From Alphaproteobacteria bacterium (lineage in GTDB: Bacteria > Pseudomonadota > Alphaproteobacteria > SHVP01): DNA of 64,000 nucleotides. Made by a program: the position numbers and the translations under genes. Numbering within the stretch: the first letter of the stretch is position 1; every line of letters starts with the position of its first letter. The notes below the pieces were generated by a model that saw nothing but the letters and a program-made list of their open reading frames with translations, was not told where the DNA came from and did not search any database. Positions 6,863-40,640 of this stretch are shown here, piece by piece. Location of the stretch: positions 6,476 through 70,475 of the forward strand of contig JAYQVF010000001.1 of the NCBI GenBank assembly GCA_038148335.1. The letters are read 5' to 3'.

Positions 6863-7639
6863 ATGGTTGAATTCTCGCTTCCCCGTAATTCCAAGGTCGG
6901 CAAGGGCAAGACGGTCAAGGCCAAGGACGGCGCCAAGAACGTCAAGCGCTTCAAGGTCTATCGCTGGAATCCGGACGACGGCAACAACCCGGTCGTCGAT
7001 ACCTACGAGGTCGACCTGGACACCTGCGGGCCGATGGTTCTCGACGCGCTGATCAAGATCAAGAACGAGCTCGACTCGACCCTGACGTTCCGCCGGTCGT
7101 GCCGCGAGGGCGTGTGCGGTTCATGCGCGATGAACATCGACGGCACCAATACGCTCGCTTGCACCAAGGCGATCGAGGACGTGAAAGGCGACGTGTCGGT
7201 CTATCCGCTGCCCCACATGAAGGTCGTCAAGGACCTGGTGCCGGACATGACCAACCTCTATGCCCAATACGCGTCGGTGCAGCCTTGGCTGCAGGCCGAA
7301 TCGGAACCGCCGACGCGCGAGCGCCTGCAGTCCCGCGACGAACGCGCCGAGCTGGACGGCCTGTGGGAGTGCATCCTGTGCGCCTGCTGCTCGACGAGCT
7401 GCCCCAGCTACTGGTGGAACAGCGATCGCTATCTCGGGCCGGCCGTCCTGTTGCAGGCCTATCGCTGGATCGCGGACAGCCGCGACGAGCACACCGGCGA
7501 ACGCCTCGACAACCTCGAGGATCCGTTCCGGCTCTATCGCTGCCACACGATCATGAACTGCACCTCGGCCTGTCCCAAGGGGCTCAACCCGGCCAAGGCC
7601 ATCGCCGAAACCAAGAAGCTGATGCAGGAGCGCCGCTAG
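6863..7639 (+). CDS. sdhB: succinate dehydrogenase iron-sulfur subunit
   Basis: 258 aa carrying the 2Fe-2S and 4Fe-4S/3Fe-4S cysteine clusters ([33 protein letters not shown]). Confidence 0.96.
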
Positions 7640-7679
7640 GCCTTGGGCTGTTTCGCCTCCGGCGCCGGGAATCGCTGGG

Positions 7680-9170
7680 TTGCCTGACGACCATTCGCTG
7701 CGCCAGAGCTACGACGACCTGCCCTACGAAACCCGGGCGCGGCGCAAGACGCACCCCGACACGCTCGCCACGATTGCGACGCTGTTCGGCCTCGATCCGC
7801 CGGCGGTGAACGCGGCGCGGGTTCTCGAAATCGGCTGCGGCACCGGAGAGAATCTCGTGGCGATCGCGGGCGCCCTTCCGGACGCCGCCTGTACCGGCAT
7901 CGACCTGTCGGCGAGCCAGATCGCGATGGCCCGTAACCTCGCGGCGGCGGCCGGCATCAAGAACGCCGACTTCCATGTTCGCGACTTCGGCGATCTGGTA
8001 CGGACGGAAGAGCCTTTCGACTACGTCATCGCCCACGGCGTGCTGTCGTGGATTCCGCTTGACCGACACCGTGACCTGCTCGATCGCTGTTCGCACCCCC
8101 TGGCACCCGGCGGTCTTCTCTACCTGAGCTACAACGCACTGCCCGGCTGGCATCAACGCCGCATTGTCCGCGACCACCTGCTGAGGGCGGTCGACGGAAT
8201 CCGGGATGCGGACGCCCGCGTTCGCACGGCGCGCGACAGCCTGGCGCAGCTAGCCGACATCGTCGGCGAGTCGGAGTCGAGCTACGGCAAGCTCGTCCGG
8301 GAGGAGCGGGACAACGCACTCAAACTTGGCGACTCCTACCTCGCGCACGATCTACTGGAGACCTACAACACCGCCTTCTATTTCGATGACGCAGTATCGA
8401 TGGCACGAGACCACGATCTGCACTTCGTCGGCGAGGCCGCCTTCGAGGCGATGGTGCCGGACACATATCCGGGCGCGATCGCCGATGCACTCAAGACAAT
8501 CCCCGCGCTGTACGACCGCGAACAGGCGCTCGACTTCCTGATCAACCGGACGTTCCGCGAATCGATCTTTTGCAAGAGCCGGCAGGCGGCCATGACCCCC
8601 CAACTGCCGCGCCTGGCGCGATTGCTCTACGCGGCCCGGCTGCAACGCAAGCCGGGACCATCGGACGCCGAGAGCGTCGTCTACCAGGACGTCGGCGGGC
8701 GCGAGATTGCGATGGCCCCCGGCGCCGCACAGCAAGCCATCGACACCCTGTCGCAGCGCTTTCCCGAAGCGCTCACCTTCGAAGAGATCGTCGCCGGCCT
8801 CGCCGTGCCCGCGCCGGCGGACCAGCAGGGGATCGTCGGCCTGATCAACGCGTTGTTCGTCCTGTACTCGCGGGGATTCGTCAGCCTGCACAGCGTGCGC
8901 CCCGGGGTCGTTGCGCTACCCGGCAAGCTGCCGAGGGCGCCGGGACTGGCCCGGGCGCAATGCGCCCGCGGCACCCGGGTCACGACAGCGCTACTGGAGA
9001 ACCTCGAAATCGACGATCCGGATTGTCGCGTCCTCCTTCCCCTGCTCGACGGCACGCGCGACATCCCGACGCTCGCGGCGGCACTACCACCGGACAGCGA
9101 GATCAAGCCGACCTACCGCGTGACCACGGCCCTGAGCAAGCTGGCGCGCGTCGGGCTGATCGTGGAATAA
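7680..9170 (+). CDS. class I SAM-dependent methyltransferase with C-terminal methyltransferase-regulatory-like domain
   Basis: N-terminal Rossmann MTase motif (VLEIGCGTGENL). The C-terminal ~300 aa resembles the 'methyltransferase regulatory domain' seen in alphaproteobacterial proteins downstream of sdhB. Possible TTG start at 7680, so the start is uncertain. Confidence 0.7.
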   Translation: MPDDHSLRQSYDDLPYETRARRKTHPDTLATIATLFGLDPPAVNAARVLEIGCGTGENLVAIAGALPDAACTGIDLSASQIAMARNLAAAAGIKNADFHVRDFGDLVRTEEPFDYVIAHGVLSWIPLDRHRDLLDRCSHPLAPGGLLYLSYNALPGWHQRRIVRDHLLRAVDGIRDADARVRTARDSLAQLADIVGESESSYGKLVREERDNALKLGDSYLAHDLLETYNTAFYFDDAVSMARDHDLHFVGEAAFEAMVPDTYPGAIADALKTIPALYDREQALDFLINRTFRESIFCKSRQAAMTPQLPRLARLLYAARLQRKPGPSDAESVVYQDVGGREIAMAPGAAQQAIDTLSQRFPEALTFEEIVAGLAVPAPADQQGIVGLINALFVLYSRGFVSLHSVRPGVVALPGKLPRAPGLARAQCARGTRVTTALLENLEIDDPDCRVLLPLLDGTRDIPTLAAALPPDSEIKPTYRVTTALSKLARVGLIVE

Positions 9171-15491: not shown

Positions 15492-15613
15492 GATCCTCTC
15501 GCGGCCGGCAACCTAGGCGCAGCCCACCGGTGCGGTCAATAGCCGCGCGGCAAGGGTTGCTGCTACGGACGGCAGTCCCTAAATTGCCGCCACCTCAAAC
15601 CGGGAAGCGATCG

Positions 15614-16024
15614 ATGTCCGTTAAGGAAGAACACCAGGCCCTGATCTACGTAATGGTTCTCATGTCGGCTGCCGACAGCGACATGACAGACAGGGAACTG
15701 TTCACCATCGGCGAAATCGTCAAGACCCTTCCGATCTTTGCGGGCATGGATCTCGAGAAACTCCCCGAGACGGCGGAGCATTGCGCCGACATGCTGTCCA
15801 AGGAGAAGGGGCTCGACGACGTTCTGGCATTCATCTCCAAGGCCCTGCCGGCCCGGCTTCACGAAACCGCCTACGCTCTCGCTTGCGATATCGCGGCGGT
15901 CGAAGGGCGCCTGCGCAGCGAGGAAATCAAGCTTCTTGAATTCCTGCGGCACCGCCTGGAAGTGGGGCGCTTGCCGGCCGCAGCGATCGAACGCGGCGCC
16001 AAGGCGCGCTACCAGAAGCTCTAG
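15614..16024 (+). CDS. TerB-like (tellurite-resistance TerB family) small protein
   Basis: 136 aa all-alpha protein; internal ATG with an upstream GAAGCGA. The LIYVMVLMSAADSDMTDRE...LACDIAAVEG pattern resembles TerB-family domains. Confidence 0.55.
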   Translation: MSVKEEHQALIYVMVLMSAADSDMTDRELFTIGEIVKTLPIFAGMDLEKLPETAEHCADMLSKEKGLDDVLAFISKALPARLHETAYALACDIAAVEGRLRSEEIKLLEFLRHRLEVGRLPAAAIERGAKARYQKL

Positions 16025-16641
16025 AGACCCTTCACGAACGAAGCCGCGGCGGCGATCGCGTCGTCGAGGTTTTGATCGTGCGTGCGGCCCGATGCCTTGC
16101 GCGGCTTCAGGTCATGATCGCCGTCTTCCAACCAGAAGACCCGAATCGACGAACTGAGGTCATAGCTTTCAACCTCTGCCCGATTGCCGAGCGCGTCGCG
16201 CGTTCCCTGCAGGACGATCGACGGGGTACGCAATGCCTGCAGGTGCTGGGTGCGCGTCTGTTGCGGACGGCCGGCGGGATGAAACGGGTAGGAAAAACAC
16301 AACCAGCCCGCGACACCCTCGGCATCGGCGATCATCGATGCGATCCTGCCGCCCATGCTTTTGCCGCCGACGACCAGCCTTGCCGGATCCCCCAGGTCGG
16401 CAATCACCGCCGACCAGGTTTCCTGCAGCACCCTGGCGCGGTCGGGCCCGCGCCGCGTGCCCTCGGTCCGCCGTTTCGCCATATAGGGAAATTCAAAGCG
16501 CACCACGCGCAGGCCCGACGCGGCCAGTCCCTGGGCAACCCGCGCCATGAAGGGCGAATCCATGGGTGCACCGGCGCCGTGCGCCAGAACGACAGTCCTC
16601 GCGGCCTTAGGCCCATCGATCAGGTAGTCGGTCATCGCCAT
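16021..16641 (-). CDS. alpha/beta-fold hydrolase (COG3571/KANL3-like)
   Basis: 206 aa with VVLAHGAGAPMDS and the nucleophile elbow GGKSMGG; starts 12 nt downstream of tRNA-Gly on the same strand. Confidence 0.7.
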   Translation of the reverse strand: MAMTDYLIDGPKAARTVVLAHGAGAPMDSPFMARVAQGLAASGLRVVRFEFPYMAKRRTEGTRRGPDRARVLQETWSAVIADLGDPARLVVGGKSMGGRIASMIADAEGVAGWLCFSYPFHPAGRPQQTRTQHLQALRTPSIVLQGTRDALGNRAEVESYDLSSSIRVFWLEDGDHDLKPRKASGRTHDQNLDDAIAAAASFVKGL

Positions 16642-16652
16642 GGCAGAGAGAT

Positions 16653-16726
16653 TGGAGCGGGTGAAGGGAATCGAACCCTCGTCGTAAGCTTGGGAAGCTT
16701 CTGCTCTACCATTGAGCTACACCCGC
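16653..16726 (-). tRNA. tRNA-Gly (anticodon CCC)
   Basis: The reverse complement gives GCGGGTGTAGCTCAATGGTAGAGCAGAAGCTTCCCAAGCTTACGACGAGGGTTCGATTCCCTTCACCCGCTCCA. This is a cloverleaf with a TTCCCAA anticodon loop, a GGTTCGATTCC T-arm and encoded CCA; it is nearly identical to E. coli tRNA-Gly(CCC). Confidence 0.92.
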
Positions 16727-16871
16727 GCTGGCCGGATTCTCTGGAGAGATTTCAGGAAAATCAAGCCGTCACGGCGGTCATTCACGGGGTTCCCAATTGA
16801 CAGGGGCGGCCGGTAACGAAATCGTCGCCCCTGGCATCGAATCAGCGCAGACCCCATCCGCCGAAGGACCC

Positions 16872-17822
16872 ATGGCGACCATCGAACGCGACCTACCGGC
16901 TACCATGCCACACTTTGCCGATCCTCATGTTACGGCGGATGGTAGCGAACGCGCGTACGTTCGCCTCACGGCGCTCGAAACGCTTTGGTTCAATACCGGG
17001 ACGCTGTGCAACCTGACATGCACTCACTGCTACATCGAATCGAGCCCGACCAACGACCGTTTGGCCTACATCACGGCAGACGAAGTCGCCGCCTTCCTCG
17101 ACGAGATTCGGAGCCGAGACCTGCCGACAAGGGAGATCGGCCTGACAGGCGGCGAGCCGTTCATGAATCCCGATATCGCGATCATTCTCGACGAAGCCCT
17201 GTCGCGAGGGTTTGATGTTCTCGTGCTGACGAACGCGATGACGCCCATGCGCCATCATCGCCGTACCTTGACGCGACTGCAGGAAAACTATGGGCGAGCG
17301 CTCGCCCTGCGGGTTTCTCTGGATCACTACACCCGGGAGCGGCATGAGAGCGAACGCGGATCGCCGACGTGGGATCGCACCCTTGACGGCTTGAAGTGGC
17401 TTGCGCAAAGCGGCTTCAACGTCGCCGTCGCGACGAGGACGCTTTGGGGCGACCAAGAACCCGTCCTGAGACAGGGTTTCGCCGACCTGTTCCGCGCGCA
17501 CGGAATCGAGATCGAGGCGCAGGACCCGACACGCCTCGTCGTCTTTCCCGAGATGGACGCAACGACGCCGGTTCCGGAAATCACAACCGCGTGCTGGTCG
17601 ATCCTCGACGTCAATCCCGACGCGATGATGTGCGCGACCTCGCGCATGGTCGTGAAGCGGAAAGGTGCCACCGCCCCCGCCGTCGTTGCCTGCACCCTCC
17701 TGCCCTACGATCAGCAATTCGAGCTTGGCGGCACGCTCGCCGAAAGCGCTGACGAGGTTCGCCTCAATCACCCGCACTGCGCCAAGTTCTGCGTCCTCGG
17801 CGGCGGCTCCTGCGGGGCCTGA
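16872..17822 (+). CDS. radical SAM protein with C-terminal Cys-rich domain (rSAM/Cys-rich, ArsS-like family)
   Basis: CNLTCTHC matches CxxxCxxC, followed by the GGEPF glycine-rich SAM motif and a Cys-rich tail (CAKFCVLGGGSCGA). The ORF opens at 16797; start assigned to the ATG at 16872 (MATIERD) and is uncertain. Confidence 0.7.
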   Translation: MATIERDLPATMPHFADPHVTADGSERAYVRLTALETLWFNTGTLCNLTCTHCYIESSPTNDRLAYITADEVAAFLDEIRSRDLPTREIGLTGGEPFMNPDIAIILDEALSRGFDVLVLTNAMTPMRHHRRTLTRLQENYGRALALRVSLDHYTRERHESERGSPTWDRTLDGLKWLAQSGFNVAVATRTLWGDQEPVLRQGFADLFRAHGIEIEAQDPTRLVVFPEMDATTPVPEITTACWSILDVNPDAMMCATSRMVVKRKGATAPAVVACTLLPYDQQFELGGTLAESADEVRLNHPHCAKFCVLGGGSCGA

Positions 17823-17871
17823 AACCGGCATTCGCCCTTGACGCAACCGGGCGTAAAGCGTAGTTAGCCCG

Positions 17872-17960
17872 CGTGGTGATTTGAGCCGACCGGCTTGCGG
17901 CCACGTAAAAGAAGCAGCTTAAAAGGTCGGAGCGACAACCCGGCTCCTGCCGGGTTTTTT
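17872..17960 (+). ncRNA. candidate SAM-II-type riboswitch (metA/metZ leader) with intrinsic-terminator expression platform
   Basis: GUGAUUUGAGCCGACCGGCUUGCGGCCACGUAAAAGAAGCAGCUUAAAAGG shows a GCUUGC-loop hairpin and an A-rich AAAAG...GCU.AAAAGG tail characteristic of SAM-II. It is followed by the hairpin CCCGGC-UCCU-GCCGGG (17939..17954) and a U6 tract at 17955..17960, 15 nt before the metZ ATG. Confidence 0.5.
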
Positions 17961-33752: not shown

Positions 33753-35474
33753 GTGAGGGCCACACAATTGATCAATCGCGCACTCGTTAGCATCGCCCTG
33801 GCTGCGACCGCCATCTCATTTCCCGCCGCGGCACAGCAGCCGCCATCCGCCTTCGCCGAACGACAGATGGTCGCGGCGGCGAACCCGTTTGCGGCGCACG
33901 CGGGCCTGACGATCCTGCGTCGAGGCGGTTCGGCGGTCGATGCCGCAATCGCGATCCAGATGGTTCTGAATGTCGTCGAACCGCAGTCCTCGGGAATCGG
34001 CGGCGGCGCCTTCATGCTCCACTTCGATTCCGAGACGCGCAAGATCACTGCGTTCGACGGCCGCGAGACCGCGCCGGCCCGCGCAACCCCGGAAATGTTC
34101 CTCGATGACGCCGGCGACCGCCTGACCTTCTACACCGCGGTCGTGGGTGGGCGCGCCGTTGGCGTACCCGGTACGTTGCGCCTTCTGGAAGAGGCACACC
34201 GACGCTTCGGCCGGCTGCCTTGGCAGGACTTGTTCGGCGAGGCGATCGCGATTGCGGAAAGCGGTTTCCCGGTGTCGCCGCGCCTGCACGCGCTCATCGC
34301 CGGAGACGCCTATCTGGCAACCTATCCCGATGCCCGACGGCACTTCTTCGACAATACGGGCGCCGCCCTTGCAGTCGGCCACGTTCTCAGGAACCCGGCG
34401 CTTGCCGAGACTTTTCGACGCGTTGCCACCCAGGGCGCCGACAGCTTCTACGAAGGCGCCATTGCGCGGTCGATCGTCTTTGCGGTCCAAACCGCGGCGG
34501 ACAACCCCGGCCTGCTCCAAATGGCGGACCTCAGTCGCTACGAGGCGAAGGTCCGCGAACCGGTGTGCGCCTACTACCGTCGTCTTGAGGTGTGCGGCAT
34601 GCCACCGCCGACTTCGGGGGGAGTAGCGACGCTGCAGATACTCGGTATCCTGCAGAACGCCACCCTCGCGGCGGAACCAGCGTGGTCGGCGCGGGCGGCC
34701 CATCTGTTCGCCGAGGCGAACCGGCTGGCGTTTGCCGACCGCAATCGCTATCTCGCCGATCCGGACTTCGTATCCATCCCGGTCGACCGCATGCTGGACC
34801 GCAGCTACCTGCGCCAGCGCTACAAGCTGATTCGAACCGACGCGGTCGTCCCGACTGCTGAGCCAGGCACGTTCCGGCAGGGCAGCCTCCATCCACCGCG
34901 TGCCGATACGGCGCTCGAACTGCCGTCGACAAGCCACTTCTCTGTCGTCGATGCCGAGGGCAACGCAGTCTCGATGACGTCGAGCATCGAGAACGTCTTC
35001 GGCTCGCGGCTGATGGTCAGCGGTTTTCTTCTCAACAACCAATTGACGGACTTTTCCTTCCGGCCCGAAGCCGACGGCCAGCCCGTGGCGAATCGCGTCG
35101 AAGGCGGCAAGCGGCCACGCAGTTCCATGTCGCCGGTGATCGTGCTGGATTCCCGAAAACGGCTCCGCATGGCCGTTGGTTCGCCCGGCGGCAGCCGGAT
35201 CATCGGCTACGTCGCGAAAACCATCGTCGGGGTCATCGACTGGAAGTTGGATCCCCAGACCGCCATCGATCTGCCCAACGTCGTCAACCGTGGCGGGCGT
35301 ACCGAACTCGAAACCGGCGCGTGGGCCACTGCCGTCGGCCCGACGCTGGAAGAGCTCGGTCACGACATCGCCGTCGTGGAAATGACGAGCGGATTGCACG
35401 CCATCGTGAGAGATTCGAGGGGCCTGTGGGGCGGCGCCGACTCACGCCGCGAGGGAATAGCGATCGGCGACTAG
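33753..35474 (+). CDS. ggt: gamma-glutamyltransferase
   Basis: GTG at 33753 gives the signal peptide (MRATQLINRALVSIALAATAISFPAAA). Conserved GGT motifs follow: GGSAVDAAIA, the autoprocessing Thr region (PTSGGVAT-like TSHFSVVD) and GSPGGSRII. Confidence 0.9.
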   Translation: MRATQLINRALVSIALAATAISFPAAAQQPPSAFAERQMVAAANPFAAHAGLTILRRGGSAVDAAIAIQMVLNVVEPQSSGIGGGAFMLHFDSETRKITAFDGRETAPARATPEMFLDDAGDRLTFYTAVVGGRAVGVPGTLRLLEEAHRRFGRLPWQDLFGEAIAIAESGFPVSPRLHALIAGDAYLATYPDARRHFFDNTGAALAVGHVLRNPALAETFRRVATQGADSFYEGAIARSIVFAVQTAADNPGLLQMADLSRYEAKVREPVCAYYRRLEVCGMPPPTSGGVATLQILGILQNATLAAEPAWSARAAHLFAEANRLAFADRNRYLADPDFVSIPVDRMLDRSYLRQRYKLIRTDAVVPTAEPGTFRQGSLHPPRADTALELPSTSHFSVVDAEGNAVSMTSSIENVFGSRLMVSGFLLNNQLTDFSFRPEADGQPVANRVEGGKRPRSSMSPVIVLDSRKRLRMAVGSPGGSRIIGYVAKTIVGVIDWKLDPQTAIDLPNVVNRGGRTELETGAWATAVGPTLEELGHDIAVVEMTSGLHAIVRDSRGLWGGADSRREGIAIGD

Positions 35475-36232
35475 CGGCGCGCCAGAACGAAGAGACGCTG
35501 CATGGGAAACAAGGTGTTGCCATCGGGCCTAGGTGGATAGGCGGCCCGGTAGCGTTGCCGCATCTGATCCAGGAACACCCCTCGCTCGGGCTCTTCCAAC
35601 GCGCCGGCGATGGGGCGCAGTGCCGTGCCCATGATCCATTGCAGGACCGGATCGTCGCCCGACAGCGTGTGGATGTAGTTGGTCTCCCAGATCTCAAGAT
35701 CGGTCGCCACTGGCGCCAGCAGGTCATAGTAGAATTCGGGCGGCTGAACGTGCATGAACGTCAGGTGCGGCCGCAACCGGTCGCGCCAAGGACTGCCTTC
35801 GATACAAGCCACGATCTCGGCATGGGATGGCTGTTCGTAGTTGCGCGGCATCTGGATGGCCAGGACGCCGCCGGGGCGAAGGCATTCGAACAGTCTGGCA
35901 ACGACCCTGCCATGATCCGCCACCCAATTCAGTGCTGCATTGGTGAAGACGACGTCGGCGTCATCCGCGTCGAAGGCGCTAATGTCTTCGCGCTTCCAGG
36001 CCAGCTTCGGCGCCCGCTGCCGCGCCTCGCCCAGCATCTCCTGGGAGGTGTCGACGCCGGTGACCTTTGCCCGCGGCCATTGTTCGGCAAGAAGCATGGT
36101 CACGTTGCCCGGGCCGCAACCAAGGTCGAAGACCACCTCCGGCGAGGCATGATCGATGCGCGCCAACAGGTCCAACGCCGGCTGCTTGCGATACCTCTCG
36201 TAGCGAAGGTAGAGAGCGGGATCCCAAGGCAT
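35471..36232 (-). CDS. tam: trans-aconitate 2-methyltransferase
   Basis: 253 aa with the N-terminal ALYLRYERYR and MTase motif I (VFDLGCGPGN); typical Tam length. Confidence 0.85.
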   Translation of the reverse strand: MPWDPALYLRYERYRKQPALDLLARIDHASPEVVFDLGCGPGNVTMLLAEQWPRAKVTGVDTSQEMLGEARQRAPKLAWKREDISAFDADDADVVFTNAALNWVADHGRVVARLFECLRPGGVLAIQMPRNYEQPSHAEIVACIEGSPWRDRLRPHLTFMHVQPPEFYYDLLAPVATDLEIWETNYIHTLSGDDPVLQWIMGTALRPIAGALEEPERGVFLDQMRQRYRAAYPPRPDGNTLFPMQRLFVLARR

Positions 36233-37692
36233 CAGCCGGTTTGCTGCCGATCAATCCGATCAACGGCAATACCGATCACCTTTGCCGGAAGATCCATGCG
36301 AAACGTCGTTCCGGTGGCGTCGCTGCGGTGCAGGGTCAACGATCCGCCATGACCCTCAAGGAGGTCTTTGGCAATGGCCAGACCGAGCCCGGTGCCCGAC
36401 GACTTTGTCGTTCCGGCAAACGGCCTGAAGAGCGTTTCATGCGCGTCCTCGGGGATGCCGGGGCCATTGTCGGCGAACTCGATGACCACGCTTTCGCCCA
36501 ATGTGGCTGCCGTGATCGCAATGACCGCGTCGCTCCGGCCACTGAGCGCTTCCATGGCGTTGCGCCCGAGATTCATAAACACGCGGAACAGCTGTTCGCG
36601 ATCCGCGCTGACCAAGAGATTGGACGGAATCTGGTTGAGCCATAGCGGCGGACGCCGGTCATCGAGACCGAGCGCAACACCCACGTCGTCGACGATCTCG
36701 CGGAGGGGAAAGGCAGTGCGCTGAGGTTTCTGTTCGCGAATACGACCGACCTGCAGCGTCTGGGTACATAGCCAGATCGCGCGATCGATCGCCTGAAGAA
36801 GGACTGGCGTCGTGCGGCGCACCTCCGGATCGGCGCTTTCGGAAAGGCGGTCGGAGACCAGTTGCGCCGTGGCGAGGATGTTGCGCAGGTCGTGACTGAT
36901 CTTGCTGACGGCCGTACCGAGCTCGGCAAGCCGGCCCTTCTGACGCAGGGCGTTTCGCAGATCGTCTTGCATCGCCGCGAATTCGCGCTGGGCGATCCCG
37001 ATCTCGTCCCCGCGTCCACCCGGCGGCGCTGCCATCGGCGCGCCTTCGGGGTCCTTGCGGAAATCCGTCATGTCCTGCGTCAGATGGCGCAACGGCCGCA
37101 CGATGAGCACGTGCAGGGCGAGGAATACCAATGCACCGGTAAAGACCGAGATGAGGAGCGAGAGGCCGAGGACCCGCCTGGAAAAAGTAAACATCTCGGT
37201 CCGCAGGGGCTGCTCGGCAATCACGACGTCGATCAACGTTGCCGGATCGTCGATGGCCTGTCCGATGACACGGATGGTCCGGTTCGGGCTAACCATCGTT
37301 ACGAAGGCATCCGCGACGGATCCAACGACGGAGCGGTCACGCAGATCGAATGTCGCACTCACGCCATCGGGAACCAGCACGTTCTCACCAAGAATGAGCA
37401 CGCGCGACTCGGCTCGCTTGAGAACGATCGCAAAGATTTCGGCCTGGTCCAGAAGATCCTGTTCGAGCTTGGGCGTCAGCGGCCCATCAGCATTGGCAGT
37501 AAGTGCGAGAGAGGCCAGTTGCGCGGTAGCGATGCGGTCTTCGAGGTAGGTGACGCGAAAACGCGCAATCGACGGCACATAGATGAGAATCTCGGCGACC
37601 ATGACGAAGAACAACGTCAGGACCAGCAACCGGCTAGAGAGGCTGCCTATCCATCGTCGAACCCGCGAGGCGGCTGTGGACGTCTGACGCAT
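36232..37692 (-). CDS. sensor histidine kinase (two TM segments, HAMP, HisKA, HATPase_c)
   Basis: H-box (SHDLRNILATA), N/G boxes (NLGRNAMEA, GTGLGLAIAK) and an N-terminal TM sensor region. The stop overlaps the tam start (ATGA). Confidence 0.85.
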   Translation of the reverse strand: MRQTSTAASRVRRWIGSLSSRLLVLTLFFVMVAEILIYVPSIARFRVTYLEDRIATAQLASLALTANADGPLTPKLEQDLLDQAEIFAIVLKRAESRVLILGENVLVPDGVSATFDLRDRSVVGSVADAFVTMVSPNRTIRVIGQAIDDPATLIDVVIAEQPLRTEMFTFSRRVLGLSLLISVFTGALVFLALHVLIVRPLRHLTQDMTDFRKDPEGAPMAAPPGGRGDEIGIAQREFAAMQDDLRNALRQKGRLAELGTAVSKISHDLRNILATAQLVSDRLSESADPEVRRTTPVLLQAIDRAIWLCTQTLQVGRIREQKPQRTAFPLREIVDDVGVALGLDDRRPPLWLNQIPSNLLVSADREQLFRVFMNLGRNAMEALSGRSDAVIAITAATLGESVVIEFADNGPGIPEDAHETLFRPFAGTTKSSGTGLGLAIAKDLLEGHGGSLTLHRSDATGTTFRMDLPAKVIGIAVDRIDRQQTG

Positions 37693-37729
37693 GGCCTTGA
37701 TTTATCACAATATTCGAGCGTGAGCCACG

Positions 37730-39151
37730 TCAGCCCAGGCGGCCAAGGATGCGCACCAGAGCGCGCACGCCCGGTCTGCTCATGGCGGGCAGAAAGAAGC
37801 TGCCCGCCGCGCGTTTGCCGATCTCCCCGTAGATCGGATAGGGCGTGACCAACCCAGCCCAGGTGCTCAGCCTTTCGCGTCTGGCGACGGCTCGAATCCA
37901 GGGAACGATCAACTCACCCGCATGGCGCGCCACGATCTGCGCGCCCAAGATCCGCCCTCGTAAGGTCGCGACGACCTTGATCAACCCGTCGACATCGCCT
38001 TGGGTCCTTGCACGGTCATTGTCGGCCACCGGCCACCGTGCGACCGACACCCTGCCGAATTGACGTCGCGCCTCAGCTTCGCTCAGTCCAACCTGGGCAA
38101 GCTCGGGATCGGTATAGGTGACACGCGGAACCGACCGATACGAAACGCGCGCGGGAATCCGGAAAAGGATGTTTCGCAGCGCGATACCAGCATGGTACGA
38201 CGCGACGTGCGTGAACTGCGGAGCGCCTGTCACGTCGCCAATGGCAAAGATACGTCGATTGGTAGTGCGCAGACGCGAATCAACCTTGATTCCGACGTTG
38301 TCATAGTCCACGCCCGCACGATCAAGACCAACATCCGTTTGTGGCCGACGGCCCGAAGCGACCAGCAGATGTGAACCCAGGAGTGTCTCGGCGGCGCCGT
38401 TGCGTTCGATGCAAATCGAGACGCCACTCTGACCACCGGTGACCGAAGCGACGGTCGTCCGTTCGAGGAGCGTGACACCCTCCTTGCGCAGGCGTCGATT
38501 GATCAGGGCCGCGACCTCAGGATCTTCGCGGCCCAGACACGAGGCCGCCTCGACAACGGTGACCGTCGCCCCCAGTCGCCTGTGCGCCTGTGCGAGTTCC
38601 AGCCCCACCGGACCACCGCCGATCACGATGAGGTGCTGCGGAAGCTCCGTATTGCCGAACACGGTTTCGTTGGTGAGGTAGGGAACCGACTCGATCCCGG
38701 CGATCGGCGGCACAACCGGTGCGGAACCCGTGGCCACGACAAAGCGGCGGGCGGCAACGATGCGGCCGGCAACGTCCAGTTCCCGTTCGTTGCGAAAGAC
38801 CGCGTTGCCCTTGATGACCTCAACGCCCATGGCCAGGAACCGTGCTTCGGCATCCATCGGCGCGATCGAATCGACGGTTTCCCGAACCCGCAACATCACC
38901 GCGGTGAAGTCGATCGCCGGTGAACCAAACCGGACGCCCAGCGCTGCTGCCTCGCGACCGGCATGGGCTGCTTCACCGGCGGCGAGGAGCGCCTTGGAGG
39001 GTACACATCCGTAGTTCAGGCAATCACCGCCCATGGCCCCACGCTCGACGAGGATGACTTTGGCGCCGAGCATCGCTGCACCGGCCGCGACGACCAGGCC
39101 ACCGGCCCCGGCACCAATGACGCAGATGTCGGGATGCAATCTGTTTTCCAA
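37730..39151 (-). CDS. FAD-dependent pyridine nucleotide-disulfide oxidoreductase (mercuric reductase/dihydrolipoamide dehydrogenase-like, class I)
   Basis: GAGAGG FAD motif, redox-active GGDCLNYGCVPSK, NAD motif (VIGGGPVGLE) and a C-terminal dimerisation domain. Confidence 0.85.
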   Translation of the reverse strand: MENRLHPDICVIGAGAGGLVVAAGAAMLGAKVILVERGAMGGDCLNYGCVPSKALLAAGEAAHAGREAAALGVRFGSPAIDFTAVMLRVRETVDSIAPMDAEARFLAMGVEVIKGNAVFRNERELDVAGRIVAARRFVVATGSAPVVPPIAGIESVPYLTNETVFGNTELPQHLIVIGGGPVGLELAQAHRRLGATVTVVEAASCLGREDPEVAALINRRLRKEGVTLLERTTVASVTGGQSGVSICIERNGAAETLLGSHLLVASGRRPQTDVGLDRAGVDYDNVGIKVDSRLRTTNRRIFAIGDVTGAPQFTHVASYHAGIALRNILFRIPARVSYRSVPRVTYTDPELAQVGLSEAEARRQFGRVSVARWPVADNDRARTQGDVDGLIKVVATLRGRILGAQIVARHAGELIVPWIRAVARRERLSTWAGLVTPYPIYGEIGKRAAGSFFLPAMSRPGVRALVRILGRLG

Positions 39152-39167
39152 GAGGTTGAATCTCCGG

Positions 39168-39878
39168 TCAGGTACCGCGCAGGCGTCGGAAGACGATGGG
39201 AACGAAAGCCAGCAGGGTCAGGCCGGCAACAGGCAGAAGAACCGCCGGCTGCAGGAATACACCGAGCCCTAGCGCCCCCTGCTCCTCGATCAGCGTTCCG
39301 GCACCGGCACCGATCCCGACATACACCACCACACCCGGAATGATGCCAACCGCCGTCGCCACCACGAAATTGCGCAGCCTAACGCCCAGCAAGGCCGGAA
39401 CAATGTTGACCAAAAAGAAAGGGAAGACCGGGACGAGCCGCAGAATGAGCAGGTAGCTCAGTTCGTTCTTGCGGATGCCGGTTTCCATACGGCCAAGCCA
39501 CGGGCCAGCTCGTTCGCGCAGAAACACGCCGAGCGTCGAACGCGCAATCAGGAAGAGCAACGTTGCCCCGGCCGTTGCCGCCACGACGACGAGCGGCACG
39601 CCGACTTCTACCCCGAAGAGAAAGCCGCCGAGCACCGAGAGCAAGGTCGCGACCGGCAGGGAAAACACGACGACGACGACATAGGCCGCGAGGAAGGAAA
39701 GGGCCGCCAGAACGCCATGTCGGGTCACGAATTCCGTCAGCTCCAGGCGGTTCCGATGCAGGCTGTCGAGCGAAATGAAGCGGCCAAGGTCGAGGGCAAA
39801 AAACAAGACGACGCCGAGTACGAGCACGCCCAGCGGGGCCAGACGGACGAGCGGCGACCTCCGCCTTTCCGGCGTCAT
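39168..39878 (-). CDS. DedA/TVP38/TMEM64-family membrane protein
   Basis: ATG at 39878 (MTPERRRS) inside ORF 39168..40559; 236 aa polytopic protein with a SNARE-associated-like core (GFLFGVEVG...[11 protein letters not shown]). Confidence 0.78.
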
Positions 39879-40054
39879 CGGCCACCCGGGCCAAGCCGCC
39901 GCGAGGACAAGGATCCTCGGAACCGCGCTCTTTCGTTCGAGATTGCCATGGGGCCGGAACTCTAGACCAATTCGGCAGACAGGAATGTCACATTTCCGGA
40001 GGATGCGACCACTGCGAACCGCAGAAATCCGCCCAAAATCCCCGCGTCGGGTCG

Positions 40055-40083
40055 TTGACACCGTGTCTCGGAGCCCGTATACA
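40055..40083 (+). promoter_or_regulatory. candidate sigma-70 promoter of rpmH-rnpA-yidD-yidC
   Basis: TTGACA (40055..40060), a 17 nt spacer, then TATACA (40078..40083), ~50 nt upstream of the rpmH GTG. Confidence 0.4.
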
Positions 40084-40132
40084 CCGGGCCTTGTTTCGGG
40101 GGGCATGGGCCCAGAACCCGAGGAGTACAGCC

Positions 40133-40267
40133 GTGAAAAGAACTTTTCAGCCCAGCGTCGTGGTACGCAAGCGGCGTCATGGCTTCCGAGCGAGAATGAA
40201 AACGGCCAACGGCCGTAAGGTTCTGTCTCGGCGCCGGGCAAAGGGTCGCAAGCGCCTTTCGGCCTAA
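40133..40267 (+). CDS. rpmH: 50S ribosomal protein L34
   Basis: GTG start with AGGAG 8 nt upstream; product [43 protein letters not shown] is near-identical to the L34 consensus. Confidence 0.92.
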
Positions 40268-40277
40268 GCGTGCGCGC

Positions 40278-40640
40278 ATGCCAGCGCGCCTCCTGAGTCT
40301 TACGCGAAGAGCGGATTTTCAGCGCCTGACGCGCCACGGAAAGAAGCGGGTCATGCCGGGTCTCATTCTTCAAGCGATGCCATCGTCCGTGACCGACGCC
40401 GAAACGCTGCGGATCGGTTTTACCGTGTCGCGAAAAGTCGGGGGCGCCGTCGTCCGCAACAGGGCCAAGCGTCGCCTGCGGGCCGCAGCCCGGACCGTCC
40501 TTGCAAATGCACAGGCAGGCCACGATGTTGTCATCGTCGGCCGCAAGGACTCCGTGCATCGCCCGTTCGATCTGCTGGTGGCAGACCTGCGGCGCGCGAG
40601 TACCGACCTCGGCCTCGTCAAGGAAGAGAGCGGAGCCTAA
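40278..40640 (+). CDS. rnpA: ribonuclease P protein component
   Basis: 120 aa basic protein immediately after rpmH, with an RNR-like motif (VRNRAKRRLR). Confidence 0.9.
   Translation: MPARLLSLTRRADFQRLTRHGKKRVMPGLILQAMPSSVTDAETLRIGFTVSRKVGGAVVRNRAKRRLRAAARTVLANAQAGHDVVIVGRKDSVHRPFDLLVADLRRASTDLGLVKEESGA

Follow-up and report, generated by a model that had tools for sequence, protein, structure and literature searches.

An ArsS-like radical SAM protein as a possible non-orthologous counterpart of ArsS in alphaproteobacterial arsenosugar-type gene systems

This work concerns a window of 64,000 nucleotides from an alphaproteobacterial contig (JAYQVF010000001.1, assembly GCA_038148335.1, positions 6,476 to 70,475 of the forward strand) and the gene within it, ending at window position 17822, that encodes a radical S-adenosylmethionine (SAM) protein. 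The protein belongs to a large, unnamed and uncurated family that, judged from sequence, is a sister of ArsS, the radical SAM enzyme of arsenosugar synthesis. The reading that we favor, with a probability of roughly 45%, is that, mainly in Alphaproteobacteria, this family would stand in for ArsS, without being orthologous to it, in gene systems of the arsenosugar type, and would append a 5'-deoxyadenosyl group to a thiol-bound metalloid. The copy in the window is an orphan: it is intact and selected, but stands without the partner that usually adjoins it and has no relation to the neighboring metZ unit.

The open reading frame at 16797-17822 (forward strand) encodes 341 aa when read from a TTG codon. 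The real start is most likely ATG 16872, because the homologues, 311-323 aa long, have N-termini that align with this codon (MATIERDL...), and the closest of them (P0001, 93% identical to the window protein) has exactly 316 aa. This is the length of the probable coding sequence at 16872-17822. The first 25 codons of the longer frame (16797-16871) have a counterpart in none of the 25 aligned homologues and are probably untranslated. By eye, a GAAGGA Shine-Dalgarno-like sequence is found directly 5' of ATG 16872, and a consensus promoter scan around the gene called no sigma-70-like site. Pfam returned PF04055 (Radical_SAM, E 3.5e-21), a subthreshold Fer4_12 match and nothing else, in agreement with the initial annotation, which had described a radical SAM protein with the motif CNLTCTHC and a Cys-rich C-terminus, both of which can be read in the sequence. 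The window protein retains all residues that are invariant in the family alignment (26 sequences: the window protein and 25 homologues), and comparison of its gene with that of a 93% identical relative (L001) gave a ratio of nonsynonymous to synonymous divergence (dN/dS) of 0.18 (dS 0.17, dN 0.03). These observations indicate that the gene is intact and under purifying selection, and that it is neither a chance reading frame nor a decaying one.

The organization of the protein was examined with residues counted from ATG 16872. The CX3CX2C motif CNLTCTHC (C46, C50 and C53; 17007-17030, forward strand, with the Cys codons at 17007-17009, 17019-17021 and 17028-17030) contains the ligands of the [4Fe-4S] cluster and is invariant both in the family alignment and in a second alignment, made with MAFFT, to which ArsS was added. 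A GGE motif (G93-G94-E95, within LTGGEPFMNPD; 17148-17156, forward strand) is invariant in the family, with G93 and G94 common to ArsS; from general knowledge of radical SAM enzymes we take it to be the canonical SAM-binding element. The protein therefore has the features of the radical SAM superfamily (PF04055), namely CX3CX2C in a partial TIM-barrel core together with a GGE-type SAM motif. The core is preceded by an N-terminal segment conserved in the family, FxDPxxTAxGxxRAxVxL, and is followed by a Cys-rich C-terminal domain (17592-17813, forward strand) with six Cys that are invariant in the family alignment (C241, C254, C274, C303, C307 and C314). The last three make up the tail HCAKFCVLGGGSC, and the reading frame ends in ...HPHCAKFCVLGGGSCGA.

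For the comparison with ArsS, genuine arsS genes named as such by the Prokaryotic Genome Annotation Pipeline (PGAP) were taken from two plasmids and used together with an ArsS family alignment. BLASTP of the window protein against ArsS of Thiodictyon gave 27% identity over 228 residues (E 7e-15), and hhalign of the family against the ArsS profile gave a probability of 98% (E 1e-13) over 180 columns, confined to residues 31-216. ArsS is the closest characterised relative of the window protein. ArsS (TIGR04167, arsenosugar biosynthesis radical SAM (seleno)protein; PF04055 plus PF12345) and the window protein share a length of about 320 aa, an N-terminal CX3CX2C motif, a GG(E/A)P SAM motif and homology in the core, and both have a Cys-rich C-terminal domain with tails that resemble each other (H-C...C..G.GS.C). 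In the alignment that includes ArsS, the tail HCAKFCVLGGGSC falls opposite HCYGCTAGQGSSC and a YDxxF motif also aligns; the tail variant HCAKFCVLGGGSCGA is aligned by MAFFT with ArsS HCYGCTAGQGSSCSG, the patterns being HCxxxCxxGGGSC and HCxxCxxGxGSSC. The extreme C-terminus typical of ArsS is H-C-x2-C-x2-G-x-G-S-S-(C/U)-G; the spacing of the tail is C-x3-C-x6-C against C-x2-C-x7-C in ArsS, and the tail match is without statistical significance. The two proteins differ in further respects: overall identity is about 25%, the conserved Cys are C241/C254/C274/C303/C307/C314 in the family and C102/C250/C265/C304/C307/C315 in ArsS, and the FxDPxxTAxGxxRA N-terminal extension is conserved in the window family.

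AlphaFold2 models of the window protein and of ArsS have the same order of elements in this region: a beta-hairpin, a terminal helix with two Cys, and a Gly-rich loop with the last Cys. In both, the first two tail Cys lie in the terminal helix, and C254 and C274 (C250 and C265 in ArsS) stand one before and one after the beta-hairpin. The comparison is of secondary-structure order in two separate models and is weak evidence. It is consistent with a C-terminal domain that is probably a remodelled, homologous, twitch-like Cys-rich domain relative to that of ArsS.

Profile searches, which the initial annotation had proposed as a check, did not place the protein in any curated family. The best NCBIfam match was to the Rv1681 (MoeX) family NF049973, with 107.3 bits (E 7.5e-31) against a cut-off of 380, and was limited to the radical SAM core (residues 62-242 on profile positions 73-244 of 326). 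That family is uncharacterised and hence adds no functional information; a literature search returned no paper pairing Rv1681 with radical SAM. The ArsS model TIGR04167 scored 75.5 bits (E 4e-21) against a cut-off of 300 and covered only profile positions 4-150 of 303. The twitch model NF033640 scored 41.1 bits against a cut-off of 170, and SPASM (PF13186) was absent from the Pfam matches at E≤1; structural resemblance nevertheless leaves a twitch-like auxiliary cluster possible. No curated cut-off was reached among the best 25 of 65 NCBIfam matches. DUF3641 (PF12345), which is carried by 120 of 120 ArsS homologues among the matches listed, was undetected here by either Pfam or profile-profile comparison. 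Because these two defining features of ArsS, a TIGR04167 score above cut-off and the DUF3641 domain, were both looked for and found wanting, the window protein is, on these tests, not a member of the ArsS family. The ArsS-type architecture claimed for it earlier therefore stands for the core homology and the similar tail, and falls for the TIGR04167 score, DUF3641 and the C-terminal halves, which lack profile-profile similarity. An orthologue from Roseomonas behaves likewise, reaching 61.3 bits against TIGR04167 and being named by PGAP only "radical SAM protein".

The family is large and tight. A word-indexed protein search returned at least 8000 matches, every one generically named, which together with the absence of any NCBIfam assignment bears out the earlier description of a radical SAM enzyme without an assigned substrate. 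An exhaustive search of 1.84 billion representatives returned only 240 clusters (50% identity, E≤1e-30), many of them fragments. Members from named genomes are mostly alphaproteobacterial (Rhodospirillales, Stellaceae, Reyranella, Acetobacteraceae, Ruegeria and other Rhodobacteraceae, Caulobacteraceae, Sphingomonadales and Micavibrio), with a few from beta- or gammaproteobacterial metagenome-assembled genomes, and identity across orders within the family alignment is 62-72%. A PDB sequence search with the window protein gave weak core matches only (BlsE, E 1e-4) and no solved ArsS-type structure. Nothing relevant came from literature searches on DUF2064 or metallophosphoesterases in combination with radical SAM, on Rv1681 and DUF3641, or on arsenosugars in combination with glycosyltransferases. 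Some unusually long relatives were set aside: P0002, seemingly a fusion, consists of duplicated radical SAM halves and is an artefact, and so are the extensions of P0125_N and P0141_C, which had no BLAST match to partner proteins and by eye look like translations of non-coding (out-of-frame or antisense) sequence. The length of a relative is by itself poor evidence of domain fusion.

The gene context of the family was surveyed by unbiased clustering of all reading frames within 5 kb (88 loci) and by targeted searches in the fetched flanks (89 loci). The clustering, another check suggested by the initial annotation, revealed no universal partner; among the leading clusters, many reflected either shadow reading frames antisense to high-GC genes or the conserved order of housekeeping genes (apaG, folE, trkH and metZ in one group; zwf/pgl/pgi in Rhodobacteraceae), and the gene order around metZ turned out to be clade-specific. 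The targeted searches showed that TIGR04282 (DUF2064) lies within 6.2 kb of the radical SAM gene in 10 of the 89 loci, nine of which also contain a TIGR04283-like GT2 glycosyltransferase; both are families of "rSAM/selenodomain-associated" transferases. The TIGR04282 matches exceed the cut-off in three loci (L084, L028 and L049) and miss it narrowly in L012 and L080, and their secondary matches to TIGR03552 point to a CofC-like nucleotidyltransferase fold. The radical SAM, GT2 and TIGR04282 genes are co-directional in L028, L049 and L073, and TIGR04282 is fused to the radical SAM protein in P0123 (N-terminal part 163.6 bits, cut-off 134) and P0202. L012 contains an ArsM-like methyltransferase whose cysteines (in TSACC, YGCG, SNCVINL and GECLGGA) are presumably the As(III)-binding positions, and ArsM-like genes are also found in L084 and L071. 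Other neighbors include an MTA-phosphorylase-like gene in L080 (TIGR01694, 270 bits, cut-off 274.85) and genes for VTT/DedA proteins and/or MerA-like oxidoreductases beside the radical SAM gene in L012, L055, L066, L084 and L088. In P0126, the radical SAM core is fused to an HD_3/YfbR-like 5'-deoxynucleotidase domain.

The most frequent partner is a metallophosphoesterase (Metallophos_2), which is adjacent to, overlapping or fused with the radical SAM gene in about 20 of the 89 loci (about 16 of them independent). In relatives about 70% identical to the window protein, its gene (296-300 aa) starts in overlap with the radical SAM stop codon, and phosphoesterase::radical SAM fusions occur in four separate 50%-identity clusters (P0121, P0122, P0142 and P0157) and as reading frames in L021 and L063. 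The gene is absent from the window and from the P0001 contig. In L008, about 150 nt of the phosphoesterase C-terminus (1223-1375, ...NLPEAYAATLSSGLWDSCEILPS) persist between the radical SAM stop codon and the riboswitch; since this remnant is still present, we conclude that the partner was deleted within the clade of the window. The phosphoesterase had no NCBIfam match, and membership in one of the TIGR0416x radical SAM-associated families was not borne out.

Both groups of partners meet in L088, on a plasmid of Roseomonas haemaphysalidis (NZ_CP061178), where the family member is 57% identical to the window protein. A single co-directional operon contains, in order, TIGR04282, DUF547, a Tes/TrsS-like radical SAM protein of 459 aa, the family member, a PhnD-like binding protein, PhnE, an ATP-binding cassette (ABC) ATPase and the phosphoesterase, with VTT, two FAD oxidoreductases, DUF547 and a TIGR04283-like GT2 on the opposite strand. 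The gene for the second radical SAM protein (7589-8968) overlaps the start of the family member, and its best NCBIfam matches are TrsS (100 bits) and Tes, tetraether lipid synthase (90 bits).

Five genuine ArsS loci (L089-L093) served as a control. They comprise GT2, FA_hydroxylase, ArsS and TIGR04282 in L089; DUF547 followed by TIGR04283, an epimerase, SDR and ArsS in L090; ArsS, a VTT::Pyr_redox_2 fusion, GT2, DUF2064 and HAD in L091; FA_hydroxylase, VTT::rhodanese, ArsS, a methyltransferase, GT2 and DUF2064 in L092; and FA_hydroxylase, ArsS and DUF2064 in L093. The accessory families found here (GT2, DUF2064, VTT, methyltransferase, DUF547 and HAD phosphatase) are the same as those around the window family, for which the genomes of other members provide TIGR04282, GT2/TIGR04283, VTT, Pyr_redox_2, DUF547, an ArsM-like methyltransferase and a phosphatase. 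The two sets differ in the dedicated metallophosphoesterase, which none of the five ArsS loci contains. The family-level gene context ties the window family to the ArsS accessory genes. Given these shared accessory sets, and given that genuine ArsS is never found next to a family member in the loci examined, the two radical SAM families are most simply read as alternative cores of a single gene system.

Near ArsS-type or ArsS-like radical SAM genes, the VTT/DedA protein was also found fused to Pyr_redox_2 (L091, 8245-10392), to rhodanese (L092, 6014-6991) and to DUF547 (L012, 13409-14827). These fusions point to a membrane module for redox or thiol handling as part of the system, and an arsenosugar scheme accounting for such a module was not found in the literature.

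In the chemistry that we propose, the [4Fe-4S] cluster bound by the CX3CX2C motif would cleave SAM reductively to give the 5'-deoxyadenosyl radical, as is general for the superfamily whose motifs are observed here. The radical would then add to a trivalent metalloid, most likely dimethylarsenite, instead of abstracting hydrogen, with the substrate held by the thiols of the Cys-rich C-terminal domain, and the product would be a nucleoside of the 5'-deoxy-5'-(dimethylarsinoyl)adenosine type. This proposal is modelled on two precedents. ArsS, the only enzyme known for this reaction, attaches the 5'-deoxyadenosyl radical to an organoarsenical; the product is DDMAA, from which adenine is then removed (bioRxiv 10.64898/2026.04.29.721666), and the C-terminal tri-Cys tail of ArsL binds As(III) and not a cluster (bioRxiv 10.1101/2024.02.01.577332). 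ArsL (NF040542), a radical SAM enzyme of arsinothricin biosynthesis, likewise has a CX3CX2C motif and forms a C-As bond, and its three Cys at the extreme C-terminus are a precedent for the HCxxxCxxGGGSC tail. It differs in using a 3-amino-3-carboxypropyl radical instead of 5'-deoxyadenosyl and in its gene clusters, which hold arsQML and not TIGR04282/TIGR04283. The RCCLKC motif of ArsL (bioRxiv 10.1101/2024.02.01.577332) is absent from the window tail HCAKFCVLGGGSCGA, and NF040542 is not among the best 25 of 65 NCBIfam matches. Two other enzymes that add adenosyl radicals, HpnH (TIGR03470, adenosyl-hopene transferase) and MqnE (aminofutalosine synthase), are much more distant than ArsS, act on carbon-centred alkene substrates, and have neither a Cys-rich tail nor a shared gene context.

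The remaining conserved Cys would probably hold an auxiliary, twitch-like Fe-S cluster. Later steps can be sketched from the partner genes found in other genomes: an MTAP-type enzyme would split off adenine phosphorolytically, activation and transfer of the modified ribose would fall to the CofC-like TIGR04282 protein and GT2, and a phosphatase (the dedicated metallophosphoesterase, HD or HAD) would remove phosphate. In the lineage of the window, the adjacent phosphoesterase has been deleted, and the other partners would be dispersed (VTT and the oxidoreductase at a distance of 20 kb) or located beyond the window.

Several findings weigh against this assignment. When the C-terminal halves alone were compared by hhalign, only a 5-residue match, G[GS]SCG, was obtained (E 0.047, probability 1%), so that the domain proposed to hold the substrate is not demonstrably homologous to its ArsS counterpart, and PF12345/DUF3641 gave no Pfam match in the window protein even at E≤1. 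The Rv1681 family scores above ArsS (107 versus 75 bits). About 60 of the 89 loci, the window included, show no accessory gene within the fetched flanks; most of the GT2, ArsM-like and MTAP-like neighbors fall below curated cut-offs, and TIGR04282 and TIGR04283 themselves owe their names to guilt by association (the NCBI type of TIGR04282 is "hypoth_equivalog"). Three components fall outside the published arsenosugar pathway: the metallophosphoesterase, which is the commonest partner, and, in L088, the PhnD-type transporter and the second, Tes/TrsS-like radical SAM protein. Finally, neither a paper nor a curated model describing the family was found, and the literature searches turned up no biochemistry for any of its members.

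Part of this evidence could be accommodated by the main rival reading, the same gene system and the same radical addition acting on a substrate other than arsenic, such as a selenium, sulfur or phosphorus (phosphite or phosphonate) species or a 5'-modified ribose lipid or sugar, with the Cys tail holding a different heteroatom or a cluster. We regard this as possible but doubtful. It would make sense of components that arsenosugar chemistry leaves unexplained (VTT/DedA, the MerA-like reductases, DUF547 and, in ArsS loci, FA_hydroxylase and the rhodanese fusions), of the PhnD/PhnE/PhnC importer of the phosphite/phosphonate type that accompanies the metallophosphoesterase in the L088 operon, and of the match of the L088 binding protein to a putative selenate-binding family (82.7 bits). 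ArsM-like genes, moreover, are near only 3 of the 89 loci, and a C-terminal domain unlike DUF3641 would fit an altered substrate. PhnD-family binding proteins, however, include the arsenite sensor AioX, and this kinship makes the transporter compatible with arsenic as well. The adjacent methyltransferases, where present, are ArsM-like and have the As(III)-binding Cys pattern. The sole experimentally defined reaction in the wider clade is an arsenic adenosylation (bioRxiv 10.64898/2026.04.29.721666), and the rejection of phosphorous acid by ArsL argues weakly against phosphorus substrates in related chemistry (bioRxiv 10.1101/2024.02.01.577332). A bolder form of the same idea, which we think distinctly improbable, is that the family and its metallophosphoesterase (joined in Roseomonas by the PhnDEC-type importer and the Tes/TrsS-like radical SAM protein) form a widespread alphaproteobacterial non-arsenic pathway. 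The 5'-deoxyadenosyl radical would then add to a thiol-bound phosphite, selenium or sulfur species, and the resulting C-P, C-Se or C-S bond would yield 5'-modified nucleosides, sugars or lipids of a new class, with arsenic adenosylation by ArsS as a side branch of this older chemistry. Conventional hydrogen abstraction from a nucleotide or sugar phosphate, as by viperin, BlsE, DesII or MoaA, with the phosphoesterase or HD protein dephosphorylating the product, also appears unlikely to us. Phosphohydrolases are indeed the commonest partners, the fused HD_3/YfbR-like 5'-deoxynucleotidase domain included, and the CofC-like fold of TIGR04282, seen in its TIGR03552 matches, would suit such a pathway. 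Yet the structural similarity to these enzymes is that of a generic radical SAM core (225-235 of 317 residues, 13-19% identity), for which SPASM/RiPP maturases score equally, and the accessory set shared with ArsS, the ArsM-like and MTAP-like neighbors and the ArsS-like tail would be left unexplained. The structures compared (BlsE 7vob, SuiB 5v1q, SkfB 6efn, MoaA 1tv7 and anSME 4k36) come with no SPASM Pfam match in the window protein, and their substrates (peptides, nucleotide sugars and GTP) find no support in the gene context of the family. A SPASM/twitch-type maturase of ribosomally synthesized and post-translationally modified peptides (RiPPs), acting on a small precursor peptide, has very little in its favor: matches to RiPP-type models cover the core only and fall far below cut-off (StsB, 54.7 versus 625), no SPASM Pfam domain was found, the neighbor clustering revealed no conserved small reading frame, protease or exporter, and an identity of 62-72% across orders is atypical of RiPP enzymes.

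The initial annotation had instead given weight to the position of the gene beside sulfur-amino-acid metabolism, which raises the alternative that the enzyme works with metZ in SAM, methionine or sulfur-amino-acid metabolism, possibly under a SAM riboswitch. The arrangement itself is real. The radical SAM gene ends 40 nt before, and on the same strand as, a SAM-II (SAM_alpha) aptamer (17863-17942, forward strand; Rfam RF00521, 66.7 bits) that precedes metZ (forward strand, start at ATG 17976; 400 aa as in the relatives, where it carries Cys_Met_Meta_PP), and this order recurs in 16 of 88 loci, apparently a single synteny group. The aptamer, however, sits downstream of the radical SAM gene and so cannot control it; it lies immediately 5' of metZ in 7 of 7 related loci tested, even where a phosphoesterase gene stands between the radical SAM gene and the aptamer, and therefore belongs to metZ. 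The synteny also extends well beyond this pair, since relatives of about 70% identity keep the order lysK, a 136-aa reading frame, Abhydrolase_11, tRNA-Gly, the radical SAM gene, riboswitch-metZ, apaG, folE and trkH, which is a clade gene order and not an operon, and Rhodobacteraceae members adjoin zwf/pgl/pgi instead. With the aptamer directly upstream of metZ in the loci tested and the adjacency confined to 16 of 88 loci, a link to SAM or methionine metabolism is unsupported: the adjacency is clade-specific synteny with no bearing on function, and we consider this alternative largely refuted.

The other flanking features named in the initial annotation, as well as metZ and its riboswitch, were confirmed, namely tRNA-Gly(CCC) at 16653-16726 and an alpha/beta hydrolase (Abhydrolase_11 in Pfam) at 16021-16641, both on the reverse strand. 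The reading frame at 15530-16024 (forward strand), which had been called TerB-like, could not be upheld as such, as it had no Pfam match at E≤1e-4. In relatives the corresponding gene is called as a conserved 136-aa protein of no Pfam family, and its start is probably an internal Met (MSVKEEHQ...).

Downstream of the radical SAM gene, the aptamer leads into a hairpin that resembles a terminator (17937-17956, 8 pairs; conserved in L001 and L008). After it come TTTTTGTT, a GGGAG Shine-Dalgarno sequence and the ATG 17976 of metZ. SAM-II riboswitches are usually described as translational, and a terminator-like expression platform at metZ may therefore be noteworthy. Between the radical SAM stop codon and the aptamer, TTGACG-17 nt-TAGTTA (17836-17864) is, by eye, a possible promoter of the riboswitch-metZ unit, although the consensus scan did not call it; a TTGACG-like sequence can be read by eye at the same place in L001 and L008.

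The whole 64 kb of the window were searched by tblastn with ArsM-like, TIGR04282, TIGR04283-like, MTAP-like and phosphoesterase queries, which returned only a generic class I SAM methyltransferase (35471-36232, reverse strand). The earlier remark that no arsM or ars genes are nearby accordingly holds for ArsM-like genes, arsC, arsB/acr3 and arsR not having been scanned. The methyltransferase belongs to a minus-strand run (35471-40559) that also contains a histidine kinase (36232-37692), a MerA/Lpd-like pyridine-nucleotide-disulfide oxidoreductase (37730-39151; Pyr_redox_2, E 1.8e-56) and, directly upstream of the latter, a VTT/DedA-type membrane protein (39168-39878; VTT_dom, E 2.2e-19; about 236 aa from an internal Met, an estimated start). 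The oxidoreductase shares 47-51% identity with those beside the family radical SAM gene in L012, L066 and L088, and 39% with the VTT::Pyr_redox_2 fusion beside genuine ArsS in L091; for the VTT protein the corresponding values are 43-46% (L012 and L088) and 33%. Pairs of VTT and oxidoreductase genes are common in Proteobacteria, and we hold only loosely the view that this pair, 20 kb from the radical SAM gene, may be a candidate for dispersed components of the system.

For the window itself, these results mean that the gene should be annotated with its start at 16872 and named an ArsS-like radical SAM protein, not ArsS, and that it should not be linked to metZ or the riboswitch. Among the major arsenic species of marine and soil food webs are arsenosugars and arsenolipids, and to our knowledge the only known committed enzyme of arsenosugar synthesis is ArsS, defined in cyanobacteria. 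The proposed replacement of ArsS would add a second, non-orthologous radical SAM family in the same gene system, present in the Roseobacter group, Reyranella, Acetobacteraceae and many uncultured Rhodospirillales. The two families would also constitute a natural experiment on substrate binding, in which the same core is combined with a different Cys-rich domain and a similar tail, and the phosphoesterase, the VTT/DedA protein and the MerA-like reductase would be partners new to the current pathway. If the family indeed does the job of ArsS, surveys that count only TIGR04167/arsS would underestimate the makers of adenosyl-arsenic compounds.

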